Program-made: the position numbers
Origin: an uncultured Gammaproteobacteria bacterium
GTDB lineage: Bacteria; Patescibacteriota; Patescibacteriia; Magasanikbacterales; GWA2-37-8
Assembly (NCBI GenBank): GCA_964596525.1
Contig: CAZQUL010000001.1
Span: 876,890-940,889 of the forward strand
Direction: 5' to 3'
Length of the DNA stretch: 64,000 nucleotides
In this document: positions 24,001-36,000 of the stretch, piece by piece
Layout of the letters: every line of letters starts with the position of its first letter
Numbering within the stretch: position 1 is the stretch's first letter

Positions 24001-27000
24001 CATGGCCCTTGCGCTTTTTCTCTTCCAGTTCGTCTGGCGCGGCATGTATATTCCGCTCAAAGACGGCTACCTCAACGCCCACATCAAAAAAGAAGAGCGT
24101 GCGACGATAATTTCGTTTGAGTCGCTTTCGCATCATGTGGGTGGAATGATTGGCCTTTTGGTGGGTGGTTTGCTGGCCCGTTATCTCTCCATGAAATGGG
24201 CTTGGGTTTGCTCCGGAATCATACTTATCATTTCAGCTCTCGGACATATCCGCCGCCGGGCTCTTTACTAACCCTGTCTTTGGACAGGGTTTATGGTTTT
24301 GACGAGGTGTCTGGGTATGAAAAAACCGCTTCAGCAGAGCTTGGGCGGTTAGAAACAAGCTTTAAGATACGAAGCGGTGCGTGCGCTTTAGGTATTCGCG
24401 CAGTGCCGAGTAGTTGGGCGGCGTGGGAGCATCGCTATCATCGAGGAGCGTGTGGAAAACATTGAGTGGGCAGCTGACAAATTCCCCGGTAGCAAAAGGT
24501 CGGCCGCGGGTGGTGTAGATAACCGCCGGATCGTCCTTGTTCTCGGTGTTTTCGGCAACTGCCAGCACCTGGATCAGTTCAGCGTCGACGCATTCCCGCA
24601 TGCCGGGGTAGGAAAAGGGTTCCAGGTTCTCGAGAAACATGAAGCGTGGTCCGCGGTAGCCCTGTTCTGGCCGGTTGATTTCATCGAGAAACATGGCGAG
24701 CGGGCGATAGGAGAGCACGCCTTTTTTCTCGCCATAGAGGGGAAAGTAAACCACTGATTGGTTTTCGATGGTTGGTTCGCATCCGGCTTTGGTGGCCACG
24801 CCCAAAACCTGGTACAGATTTCCCTTCCAGTGTCGATATTTACCGATCTCTACGTTTTGAGTGTTCATTGTTGCCTCGGGCGGCTGGGACTCGTTGCCGC
24901 GGGTGGATTGTATATACCAGCGCACAAAAAAGCAAGAAAGAGGATTTCTTTTAACGGGTCAAGAATTTAAGCATTCGTCCCCTGATAGTCTTGACTTAAT
25001 TATTTTAGGTGTATAGGGTGGTTACGTCCTAGTATGCAACCTAAGGAGGGTGCTATATGAAACGAATCCTGATTTGTTCCTTGATGGGTGGTATGTTGTT
25101 TGGAGGTGCTGTAAGCCGTCCCACTCTGGAAGATTACAGGCGCGGCTGCTTTGCCTCTTCCAACAGCCAGCACAGGTGCGGCGATGGCACAATTTCAACC
25201 GGTGATGGTTTGTGCGAGGGGCAGCTCCCTCACTCTGGCCCTCCGGTGTTCGAACCGCCTTCGTCTTCTCCGCCGCCCGAAAATAACTGATATGTAGAAA
25301 ACTTCCGACCCGTGACGGGTCTTTTTTGTTTGATGAAATAGTCTGCTAAAAAAAGAGACGCTCATTTTGAACGTCGCTTACGTTTTAGGGGTGCTGTGAC
25401 AGTCGTGTCCATGGAGGAGTAGTAGGTCGAGGGTTGGCGATTTCAAGTTTTGGTGCCTGGGTGCCTAGTCGCTGATTCCGTGTCGATTGTTCCATCATAT
25501 TTTTATTATACACCGAACTAGACGGAGGAATGACTGCGCCTTTTTGGGTTTCATAGTATGATATATGTAGGTAAACACTGATTCATAATCCCATTCCTAT
25601 GAAAAAAATTATTATTCCAACTCTGGCCGGGATGGTGGGTGTGGTAGCTCTTAGTTTGGTGTGGTACGGGGTATCGGCAAAACCTGCCGCGCTGGTCGTT
25701 AGGGATGCAGCACAGGTTGTCTTGGCGGTTCCGGCCATCACACAGGCACCGGGCGGGAATTGGGCTAATCCGTGGGGCAATGCTTGCGAAGAGGCTAGCG
25801 TGGCTATGATCGAAGCGTTTTACACCGACAAGAAACTCACGCAAAATGAAGCCAACGACCATATGCGCACCATGTTTGCTTGGGAAGACCAGGTGCTTGG
25901 TAAAAACGAAGATACAAGCGCTGAGGAAGTGGTGGCGATGATCGAAGGTATCACTTCGTCGTTTCGTGCTGAGGTGGTAAAAAATCCCACGCTCGATGAC
26001 ATTAAAAACGAGCTGCGCGAAGGACGGCCGGTTATTGCTTTAGTGAACCAGTTCGAGTTTTACAGAAAGCCTCCAGTTAAGCAAAAGGGGTTTTCTTCTC
26101 ATGTTTTCGTTGTTATCGGTTATGACGATACTAAGAGGCAGTTTATAATCAACGATCCAGCGGATTTGACCGCAAAACGTTATGCTTATGATCGATTAAT
26201 GAACTCGCTGCATGATTTGGATGCTTCCGGCGAAGCGACGGGCGAGGCGGTAGTTGTCTTCACTCAGGAGTAAAAAAAGGCGGTTTAGGAACCGCCTTTT
26301 TTGTGGAGAGTTTTGTGGTATACTATATATAGTTGCTTTTTAAACTTATTATTTTTTTAACTCATTACCTATGAGGAGGGGATTCTACAAGGTATTGTGG
26401 CGCGCCGGTCTTGCACTTGGCGCCATGATGCTTATTTTTTTTATTTTCAGCGACAGTGCGGCAGCGGCCATTAATGCGCCCACGGCTGCGGTAACATCAA
26501 CCGTAACCACTAATTCCATCCGTGTTGATTGGACGGCGGGTGCAGGGGATGAAACATTGTACGGACTTGAGCAGTCTGCTGATGGTGTTTCGTACGCTAA
26601 CGTTGCCACCGTGACAGTCGGAACAGAATTTTACGTATTTACGGGCCTTGCTACCAACACGCGCTACTGGTTCCGCGTTAATGCTGGCGATGGGACTGCT
26701 TCTTCTAGTTACAGCACAGTCGGGCCGAGCTATACGCTTGCAGCCATTGCCGGTGCGCCAACGGTGACCGCAGCTTCAAGTACCGCGCTCCAAATCGTAA
26801 TTGATTACACGTCAAACCCCAGCAATACTACGTTTGCTGTGTTTAACACGACAACACAAAACTATCTTACTGTATCTGGCGTGGCAACACCGACTGCAAC
26901 CTACTTTGCCACCACTTCTTGGGGCGGCTCCGCAGTTGGACTTTCACCGAACACGCGCTACCAATTTGTCGTTATCGCTCGCAATGGCCAGGCGCTCGAC

Positions 27001-33000: not shown

Positions 33001-36000
33001 ACCGACGGAGAGAGCGCTATCCATGTTTTAGGGCAGGCTGATTTTACGTCAAGTGGTTCAACTACCACACAATCAGGCATGAACACGCCGCAAGCGCTGG
33101 CGTATGATAGTGCTAACCAACGTCTTTTCGTCGGTATTTTTAGTACTGCCCGCGTGTTGGTTTTCGACGTGGCGAGCATTACCGACGGCGAGAATGCGGT
33201 TAACGTGCTTGGGCAATCAAGTTACACGAGCACCAGTTTTACGGTCAGCCAATCAAGCACGGTGAGTCCAGGCGGTCTTCTATATGACGGTGATCATAAT
33301 CGATTGTTCGTGGCCGGAAATAACCGCGTGATCGTATTTGATGTAACGGATATAACGAACGGTGAGAACGGTGTGGCACTTCTCGGACAATCCAACTATG
33401 CGTCTTCGACTGCAGCCACCACGCAATCAGGCATGAATGGTGCTGCTGGGCTTGCTTACGACCGTGTTAATCAGCGCCTTTTTGTGGGTAATTATCTTGC
33501 ATCGCGCATTACGGTTTACGATGTTGCTGCCATTACCGACGGTGAAGACGCGACGCATGTGCTCGGTCAGTACAATTTTACTTCTACCGGCGCCTCAACC
33601 ACGGCCAATGGCTTGTCATTACCGCAAGGTTTGGCTTATGACGAGGGGAATCAGCTGTTGTATGTAGCAGAAGCCAGCAATCACCGAGTAAGCGTTTTCG
33701 ATGTTGAGCCGGATGCTGCGCCGCTCGCTAATGCGGCCGGCACGCCAGTTGTAACAGCACTTGCCACCTCGTCACTCGGTGTAACTATTAATACTAACGG
33801 CAACACATCCGACGTACGCTACGCGATTCGCAATGTTACTACTGCAAGTTACGTTACGGCGAGTGGAACCGCGACATCGACGCCAGTGTACTTTGTTAGC
33901 TCCAGTTGGAGCGGTTCTGTGCTGGGGCTTTCTCCTAACTCGGCGTATCAATTCGTGGCCATCGCCCGCAATATCGATAATATTGATGCAGCCACGTCTT
34001 CGACTAGTACGGTGGTATATACGCTGGCGGACGTGCCCGAAAACGTCACAAGCACTAGCGCCACGTCTGATTCTGTCACTGTCAGTTGGTCGGGCAATGC
34101 CAGCGAATATTACGTAGAAAACGCGAGTGCGAGCACGACCTCTGGTTATGTTACGTCCACGTCCTATACGTTCGGTGGACTTGGCTGTAATGCTACGTAT
34201 TATTTCCGTGTCAAAGGTCGTAACGGTGATGGGGTAGAAACCGCCTTCTCAGAAAGCACTCTTTTATCCGTTGGTGCATGCACGAGCGGTGGTGGAACGG
34301 TCCATATCGGTGGCATGGTAACTAGTACTGGTGGCGGGGGTGGTGGGTATACAGCTCCGGCGGTTCAATCGATTATTACTCCGCCTGCACCGACTGCTTT
34401 GTATCCAGCTATACCGCAACTCCTCTGGCCCCAAGATCTGCCTCTACCGACATCAACTTCACCGCTTACGCCTGTTGTGTTGCCCGTACGTGAGGCATTT
34501 TTGACTCCGGCGGTGCCAACATCTGCAGTCCGTATCATTCGTCTACCGTCGGCAAGCATGCTTAAGCCGGGTCGCAGCTTTTCGTATACGTATAGTTATA
34601 CTAACCCGCTTGCCACAGGGCAGACCATCCGCGTTGTGCGCGAAGTGATGGGGGAGCGTAGCGGACGCAGTATCGTGAACGGTTTTGGCACGCGTTCCAT
34701 TTTGGCACGCGAATCATTTTCTTTCACAGCCACCCATCTCATTCCGCGCACCGCAGTGCCTGGTGCATATATTCTTCGGATTCGCGTTTATGACGCTCTA
34801 GGTCGCTTAATCGACCACAACAGTTTCAGGATGGAAATAACCAAATAAGACTAATAATTAAAACACCGCCCGGGCGTGGAGATTTTTATGAAAAGGTTTC
34901 CAGAAGCCCGACGGTGTTTTTAATCGGATTTTTGATTTAGTGTAATTGAAAAAATGCGCCCCAAAACAAAAGAGCTCCCGAGAGCATATTTATGCTCGGA
35001 AACCACCAGTAAACACGTTCGGCCGCATGTTCGTGCATAACAACATAGAGCGGCAGTAAAGGATACACGATAAGTGGTATTGACCAGGGGACAAGAGCAG
35101 AAAGCTCAGGAAGAGCGGCAAAAAAACTCAGCGTCCAAAGTATTGAGCAGGCAAAAAGCGCGTGTCTTTTTCCAAGGTACACTGCCGTCGTCGTAAGCGT
35201 AGCTGCACGATCGCTTGCAATATCTGGTATGGCCGAAAAAAGGTGCATAGCAGCGGCCCAAAGCATGCCAGCCATGATGATATTCCAAGGCGGCAGATGA
35301 CCAGAAATCTGACTGTAGCCGATAAGCCCGGGAATAATATAGAGCGCGTTTGATGCGCTGTCGATGAAGGGGTATTTTTTGAAGCGCAGCGGGGGAGAAC
35401 TATAGGCCCATGAAAGCCCAAGAAGTGCAAAAAGAAGAAGAGTGCTTAAAATGCTTTGAAAAAGCATCGCAGCTCCCGCATACAGTACGGCCGTGCCGAT
35501 GAGGAGATTCTTGGTAAGAGCGCGTTCATCACTTGCGAGCAGATGTTCTTTGGTTTGTTTTTTTGGGTTAAAACGGTCGGTGTCAGTGTCGTAATAATCG
35601 TTGATACCGTACAAAAAGAAATTGGCCGGAAGGAGAAAAAATAAAAATGCGCTATAAAAAAGCGGATCGCGGTAGAAAAACGGATCGGCACTGGCGCGCC
35701 CAAGGATGTAGGGGCCTGCTAGATAGATCGCAAAGCGCGGACGGGAGACGGTAGTAATAAAGCGTAGAGCTTTTGCTATTTGTGACCCGGTTTCATGAAG
35801 TGCGTTTGGTAGCATAAGCCATAATTTCAGAAAGTAGCGTGTGGTACTCTGTGGGTAGCTCGGCAGCCTCAAGAGCAACGCGGGCCTGCTGGAGTTCTTT
35901 GCCGGCAATGCGTTCGACGGCCGAAGTTATGCCGTAGTGGAGTATTAGATGGCGGACAAAAGCTATATCTTTTTTGGTGATATGCGGATTACCAAAAAGA

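Follow-up and report, generated by a model that had tools for sequence, protein, structure and literature searches.

The 64,000-nucleotide stretch analysed here (positions 876,890 to 940,889 of contig CAZQUL010000001.1, assembly GCA_964596525.1; hereafter the window) carries two genes, A and B, for secreted multidomain proteins that end in the same type of cationic module of about 110 amino acids (aa), a candidate envelope anchor. An earlier reading of the DNA, hereafter the original prediction, described their products as two giant paralogous surface proteins at 26371-34848. Both open reading frames (ORFs) are present there on the plus strand, but with 586 and 1158 aa their size was overstated. 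The composing parts of both genes are listed by position in the window.

26371 to 28131, plus strand: gene A, 586 aa, secreted FN3-array protein with C-terminal module (ORF; Pfam fn3, E = 6e-18, 65.3 bits against a cutoff of 25; Pur_ac_phosph_N, E = 2.7e-8)
26371 to 26469, plus strand: predicted signal peptide of A, aa 1-33, ending in SAAAA before IN (read from the sequence; 18-aa N-terminal hydropathy 2.06)
26473 to 27597, plus strand: four FN3-like domains, aa 35-409 of A (Pfam fn3 and Pur_ac_phosph_N; internal and A-B alignments)
27598 to 27798, plus strand: Gly-rich hinge followed by Pro-rich linker, aa 410-476 of A (sequence)
27799 to 28128, plus strand: cationic immunoglobulin (Ig)-like C-terminal module of A, aa 477-586 (hidden Markov model (HMM), E = 3.3e-33; AlphaFold2 predicted local distance difference test (pLDDT) 95.7)
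31372 to 34848, plus strand: gene B, 1158 aa, secreted NHL-propeller and FN3 protein with C-terminal module (ORF; Pfam NHL, PF01436, E = 3e-28, 96.8 bits against a cutoff of 20; fn3, PF00041, E = 1e-7, 32.4 bits against a cutoff of 25)
31372 to 31458, plus strand: predicted signal peptide of B, aa 1-29, ending in VHA before V (read from the sequence; hydropathy)
31459 to 33711, plus strand: twelve NHL blades of B, aa 30-780 (LGQ motifs; NHL, SGL and Lactonase matches; internal duplication)
33724 to 34281, plus strand: two FN3-like domains, aa 785-970 of B (A-B alignment; Pfam; Cys positions)
34282 to 34503, plus strand: Gly-rich hinge followed by Pro-rich linker, aa 971-1044 of B (sequence)
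34504 to 34845, plus strand: cationic Ig-like C-terminal module of B, aa 1045-1158 (HMM, E = 7e-34; charge)

The FN3 array proposed for A and the NHL plus FN3 composition proposed for B are both backed by Pfam matches above cutoff, and the proposed paralogy holds over the C-terminal region. A BLASTP comparison aligns residues 223-583 of A with 785-1155 of B at 38% identity across 378 aa (E = 8e-58). The common cassette comprises two FN3 domains, a Cys- and Gly-rich hinge, a Pro-rich linker and the terminal module, in which A and B align with 30 invariant columns. The hinge motif G.CTSGG..GGTV.IGG reads GVCTSGGSGGTVNIGG in A and GACTSGGGTVHIGG in B and is conserved in the close subfamily only, not family-wide. 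It is best interpreted as the terminal part of the last FN3 domain followed by a Gly hinge, because the only two cysteines of each protein lie in that domain (Cys378 and Cys409 in A; Cys939 and Cys970 in B). Cys378 and Cys409 are a probable disulfide, the cysteine of G.CTSGG probably pairing with that of LGC(A/N). Both N-termini appear signal-peptide-like and cleavable, while sequence inspection and hydropathy reveal no lipobox, transmembrane segment, LPXTG or PEP motif or hydrophobic C-terminus in either protein (peak 18-aa hydropathy in the last 120 aa of 1.09 for A and 0.96 for B). The terminal modules are strongly basic, with a net charge of +11 and an isoelectric point (pI) of 12.0 in A and of +10 and 11.3 in B, whereas the remainder of each protein, its passenger, carries charges of -6 and -32, respectively.

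The module is nearly invisible to word-indexed homology searches, which returned no matches for a single sequence and one protein for a profile. Likewise, no relatives were found with A among genome contigs, with A or an alignment of its close subfamily among metagenome contigs, or with the alignment among viral contigs. The family was recovered by exhaustive HMM search only, over 1.84 billion representatives, which yielded 267 cluster representatives at E<=1e-3, with 106 of them at E<=1e-10. On the module of A, of B and of each of 30 diverse members scanned singly, all Pfam-A and NCBIfam models stay below cutoff. The sub-cutoff matches are all of Ig-like/E-set type (Y_Y_Y, FlgD_ig, MG2, TcfC, RbmA-like_FnIII, CARDB and FxLYD), with RbmA-like_FnIII (PF22021) staying below its 27-bit cutoff but appearing at E<1 in 7/30 members (best E = 0.006). 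A signature of the form Y.Y.N ... V..R ... GK ... G.Y..RV.V.D..G..L..NSF characterizes the family. Within a 30-sequence alignment (A2, whose numbering is used here), R43 and G83 are invariant and the Y.Y.N and G.Y elements nearly so (Y27, N31 and Y85). Basic columns keep a K or R in subfamilies of both Lys and Arg type.

AlphaFold2, run on the same alignment, confidently predicts an all-beta sandwich (pLDDT 95.7, predicted template-modelling score 0.86), namely a Greek-key sandwich of seven to nine strands, as is characteristic of E-set/Ig-like domains. The nearest solved structure is RbmA, a biofilm scaffold of Vibrio cholerae (PDB 4kkp/4be5), on whose domains the model superposes. GbpA, Ig- and carbohydrate-binding-module-like domains of glycoside hydrolases and the carbohydrate-binding domain of Wzt are also among the closest structures. 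The original prediction spoke of a novel C-terminal module. This stands for the sequence family, for which neither Pfam nor NCBIfam has a model; the predicted fold is a common Ig-like/E-set sandwich, and the novelty is limited to the sequence.

The domain context of the module was surveyed in the best 150 of the 267 representatives, 129 of which contain it in full length. It most often closes the protein, with no more than five residues left before the stop in 102 representatives, either as a tandem pair (n = 77 of the 129) or as a single copy (25/129, mostly zero to two residues from the stop). In 18/129 the module is followed by a Lys-rich tail only, such as KKPAPVVKKPVVKAPVVKKK, and in three (P0111, P0128 and P0142), as well as in P0151, by a PG_binding_1 domain (PF01471; Pfam 44-60 bits). 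The remaining 6/129 have other tails, four of them short and two long, the latter on low-scoring, unrelated Ig-repeat proteins. An N-terminal module does not occur among these best 150 representatives. Signal-peptide-like N-termini are present in 60 of 73 full-length family members, and none of the members checked has a hydrophobic C-terminal segment (peak hydropathy 1.71). Across the family, proline makes up 10% of the 40 aa upstream of the module compared to 3.8% of the passengers. The latter are heterogeneous, comprising FN3 arrays, NHL propellers, NosD-type beta-helices, CBM_4_9 and unannotated domains, which is the pattern expected for a portable anchor. Over 206 copies the module has a median net charge of +8 and a median pI of 9.85 and is positively charged in 93% of cases, whereas their own passengers tend to be acidic (median pI 4.66). 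At least three paralogues apparently coexist in one genome, namely A, B and P0055, an FN3-array protein of 1138 aa.

Two further observations concern the organization of family members. In L002, two neighbouring genes (3-1343 and 1359-6011) each have a cationic module at the end, thus paralogues can be arranged in tandem. In addition, a segment of about 80 aa (...F.GASW..Y...K.W.L..G.G.K.VYVKFRD..G..S...) recurs in many relatives (P0002, P0004, P0006, P0012, P0016, P0018, P0028 and P0036, all encoded outside the window), where it lies immediately upstream of the Pro-rich linker and the module. It has no Pfam annotation and may be a second undescribed domain.

Charge and context bear on what the module does. 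Generic E-set Ig-like domains, such as CARDB, MG2, Y_Y_Y, FlgD_ig and the Ig-like domains of GH2 and GH66, belong to the same fold class, and the module could simply be a structural Ig-like cap or spacer without a specific binding role, whose position and presence in both A and B go back to no more than a duplicated 3' cassette. This we consider unlikely. None of these domains matches at gathering score and the module has a signature of its own, with an invariant R and G and a near-invariant Y, N and Y. Moreover, it stands strictly C-terminally behind unrelated passengers, and its charge is systematically inverted relative to those passengers, many of which are themselves Ig-like or FN3 domains. 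A role in self-association, through a lattice, S-layer-like packing or dimerization rather than through binding of the envelope, is very unlikely in our view: net charges of +8 to +11 disfavour homotypic packing unless a counter-ion polymer is present, and at least three different module proteins apparently come from a single genome.

A position at the extreme C-terminus is shared with several known sorting and anchoring signals. The original prediction recognized no LPXTG, PEP-CTERM or S-layer anchor, and none is found in A or B. Nor does the module map at cutoff to any other anchoring or sorting domain of Pfam or NCBIfam, so that the refutation named with the original prediction did not materialize. 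The LPXTG assignment fails for lack of both the motif and a C-terminal hydrophobic segment, and PEP-CTERM for lack of a PEP motif, a transmembrane helix at the C-terminus and an NCBIfam match. SLH (PF00395) and PG_binding_1 (PF01471) have no Pfam match in either protein and are rejected as identities of the module. The nearest known sorting domain is the type A C-terminal domain (CTD) of the type IX secretion system (T9SS), TIGR04183 or Por_Secre_tail, another Ig-like sandwich, which sits at the far C-terminal end of a variety of secreted proteins. No NCBIfam model matches the module better, yet at 20.3 bits this match is weak, staying under the cutoff of 23, and the assignment is rejected; E<1 is reached in 4/30 members and full-length A matches at E = 0.068. 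One possibility is that the module is an analogous sorting or secretion signal, perhaps cleaved by a dedicated machinery. The C-terminal position, the sandwich of similar size and a gene for a secreted C39-like peptidase directly upstream of A are in line with this. However, the T9SS CTD measures about 75 aa against 110 aa for the module, the module also occurs in tandem, and no sorting domain, CTDs included, is among its top structural matches. The T9SS components PorU, PorV and SprA are not encoded in the 64-kb window, and to our knowledge Patescibacteria, the host lineage, have neither an outer membrane nor a T9SS. A sorting signal therefore seems scarcely probable.

The structural neighbours allow yet another explanation, in which the module is a lectin-like or RbmA-like matrix-scaffold domain that binds polysaccharide of the host or of the cell's own matrix, the protein being held otherwise or released. 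The closest structures (RbmA, GbpA, glycoside-hydrolase domains and Wzt) agree with it, and the tandem pairs in 77 relatives resemble the two-domain architecture of RbmA. Nonetheless, RbmA is a free protein while the module is a C-terminal appendage, present as a single copy in A and B, and their sequence similarity is confined to the G.Y.v.v stretch of the F-G hairpin, with PF22021 below cutoff. A and B also have no other candidate anchor, given a cleavable signal peptide and neither lipobox nor transmembrane segment, and the Pro-rich linker, the poly-Lys tails and the neighbouring PG_binding_1 domains point to a C-terminus close to the wall. We judge this explanation improbable. An RbmA-like fold is not foreign to envelope tethering in the Candidate Phyla Radiation (CPR): PamR of the CPR bacterium Ca. 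Mycosynbacter amalyticus has been proposed to be an RbmA-like pilus terminator that anchors the pilus to the membrane (bioRxiv 10.64898/2026.03.03.709456), which provides a precedent. Like the module, PamR is described as RbmA-like in its Ig fold, comes from a CPR bacterium and has a proposed role in holding a surface structure at the envelope (bioRxiv 10.64898/2026.03.03.709456). Unlike A and B, which have no transmembrane helix or pilin context, it has a transmembrane helix at its C-terminus and acts by donor-strand insertion into pilins.

The proteins that share the passenger of B offer an independent view on the C-terminal position. Among 120 homologues of its double NHL propeller from other Patescibacteria (40-55% identity), PG_binding_1 occurs in 17, at the very C-terminus in all five that were checked, and SLH in seven, near the C-terminus in all four that were checked. 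In B, P0052, P0068 and P0097 the basic module forms the C-terminal end instead. As PG_binding_1 and SLH are established wall-binding domains, the C-terminus is thus the point of wall attachment for this protein class in related lineages, a slot that in B appears to be taken by the module. Homologues with a source name belong to Peribacteria, Parcubacteria, Pacebacteria, Yanofskybacteria, Woesebacteria and Paceibacterota. Other homologues of B end in short tags (among P0164-P0184, P0202, P0253 and P0268). A number of 21 terminate in an aromatic tag, ...GGGD-x-F-[HY]-F-F-G-[FWY]$ (of the form F-x-F-F-G-F$); these are mostly proteins of about 1900 aa, one of them named Ca. Peribacteria. Around eight others end in ...PGY[ED]$ or ...FGE$. 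Such short C-terminal tags look like unrecognized sorting or anchoring signals in Patescibacteria.

From the observed sequence family, position, charge and domain contexts, together with the predicted fold, we infer both retention at the cell and a binding partner, and we favour with moderate confidence the reading that the module tethers A and B non-covalently to the cell envelope. Both proteins would leave the cell by Sec export, after which cleavage of the signal peptide would leave no membrane or covalent anchor. The cationic C-terminal sandwich would then bind anionic envelope material in a non-covalent, largely electrostatic manner, candidate partners, if present in Patescibacteria, being wall glycopolymers, peptidoglycan-associated polymers and lipid head groups. 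The Gly/Pro-rich linker would cross the wall, so that the acidic FN3 stalk of A, and the stalk with its double NHL propeller head in B, could point outward for adhesion or ligand binding. In this respect the module resembles the non-covalent anchors of Gram-positive bacteria (PG_binding_1, SLH, GW and the cationic S-layer anchoring domains of lactobacilli), which are also C-terminal, often highly basic, preceded by a linker and portable. It has no kinship in sequence or fold with these anchors, as it is Ig-like and not of the SLH, PGB or SH3-like type. The more specific proposal, that the module is an envelope anchor particular to Patescibacteria, a CPR counterpart of SLH, PG_binding or LPXTG that binds an anionic wall or membrane polymer, is a tentative one that we deem quite possible.

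Several points weigh against an anchoring role. The fold is a generic Ig-like sandwich, elsewhere also found in the role of spacer or carbohydrate-binding domain. A module sufficient by itself would make an extra PG_binding_1 domain or Lys tail redundant in part, so that these extras could be the actual anchors. The module family is absent from phage wall-binding proteins in searches of PHROG, BFVD and viral contigs; PHROG gave no meaningful matches and the Foldseek matches in BFVD are generic, leaving no phage link.

The propellers of B merit separate attention. The gene encodes 12 LGQ motifs at a spacing of about 60 aa, likely corresponding to two six-bladed propellers, and contains two pairs of exact repeats inside the blades, in agreement with the near-identical intragenic repeats of the original prediction.

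31879 to 31916 and 32065 to 32102, plus strand: exact 38-nt repeat encoding the blade-boundary motif NAIHVLGQANFTS (exact match)
32579 to 32618 and 33161 to 33200, plus strand: exact 40-nt repeat encoding IFDVASITDGENAV at a boundary between blades (92% identical across 66 nt)

Both are nested in longer blade-repeat families of 66-130 nt, and none of 200 shuffles of the sequence (0/200) had any repeated 20-mer. These repeats had been taken as a sign of recent expansion or recombination. To us the exact stretches look like local homogenization between blades. The 12-blade architecture recurs in the orthologues P0068, P0052 and P0097 at 50-54% identity. That conservation means that B is not an assembly artefact, and misassembly is rejected. 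Among the orthologues, P0071 and P0068 are 95-99% identical on both flanks of a segment of about 435 aa, or around seven NHL blades, that P0071 lacks, with the junction falling within the blade motif YDSTNNRL. This gene family thus either has a genuinely variable number of blades, through recombination, or is prone to assembly collapse.

A and B belong to a row of six genes (25599-34848) that all encode exported proteins and use both strands. The other features of this row are as follows.

25599 to 26273, plus strand: exported Peptidase_C39_2-like cysteine peptidase, about 100 bp upstream of A (Pfam, 68.4 bits)
28148 to 28186, no strand: bidirectional terminator-like hairpin with an 18-bp stem, between A and the convergent DUF5666-like gene (sequence)
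28192 to 28938, minus strand: DUF5666-like secreted protein with signal peptide (26.2 bits against a cutoff of 27)
29097 to 29594, minus strand: amicyanin-like cupredoxin lipoprotein with lipobox VSGC (Copper-bind, 37 bits)
30004 to 31188, plus strand: GC-rich (63%) putative lipoprotein, no Pfam or NCBIfam match (lipoprotein-like N-terminus)

Of the three genes expected between A and B, the cupredoxin and the GC-rich putative lipoprotein are supported, while the DUF5666-like assignment falls just under its cutoff. At 60-63%, the GC content of the GC-rich ORF exceeds the 50% of the window, and a horizontal origin of the gene is possible. It likely starts at the GTG at 30004, after a GGGGG ribosome-binding site and a promoter-like site that, with 11/12 matching positions, is the best in the region. 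The Gly-Gly-rich hinge of A and B raises the question of processing by the upstream C39_2-like peptidase; the pairing of such a peptidase with a module gene was not seen in related loci. The locus had been described as an envelope or adhesion locus. As six consecutive genes encode exported proteins, the envelope reading is plausible and a fair description of the region. An adhesion operon is not supported. The genes use both strands, A is separated from its convergent neighbour by a strong hairpin, and the neighbours found around A and B were not seen in related loci. Directly downstream of B lies a carotenoid-type cluster (34937-39150, minus strand) encoding a UbiA prenyltransferase, a polyprenyl synthase, a phytoene synthase and a phytoene desaturase, and a DNA photolyase is encoded farther along (57964-59328). 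Together they form a light-related set that is notable for a Patescibacteria-like genome of about 1.3 Mb. The window contains no tRNA and no Rfam matches.

Regarding the lineage, the glutamate dehydrogenase (GDH) encoded in the window has its best matches (68-71%) in metagenome-assembled genomes (MAGs) of Ca. Magasanikbacteria. MAGs labelled 'uncultured Gammaproteobacteria' (TPA_asm; L008, L010, L011 and L014) have GDHs that are also 68-71% identical and interleaved with those of Ca. Magasanikbacteria. This may reflect erroneous public taxonomic labels of these MAGs or a horizontal transfer of the GDH. Members of the module family with a source name are all Patescibacteria, annotated as Ca. 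Magasanikbacteria or Patescibacteria group. These members, the GDH matches and the named NHL homologues of B lead us to assign the source of the window to Patescibacteria (CPR); around the GDH gene, no neighbours were shared with its relatives.

An attached life on other cells is generally assumed for Patescibacteria (CPR), whose surface proteins would be the likely machinery of host recognition. We know of essentially no described means by which these proteins are held on CPR cells. What is new here is an undescribed and unmodelled family of C-terminal cationic Ig-like domains whose named members are all Patescibacteria; the kind of anchor proposed is familiar. Were the module a plain structural Ig domain, the finding would come down to an ordinary pair of paralogous adhesin-like proteins. 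If the anchor reading is true, the module would hint at an envelope polymer acting as its ligand, and it could be used as a display tag in the few genetically tractable CPR. Its HMM would provide a sequence handle for cataloguing the displayed proteome of uncultured CPR genomes, and, together with the short aromatic tags (F-x-F-F-G-F$ and PGYE$), the module would form a lineage-specific repertoire for surface display in these episymbionts.

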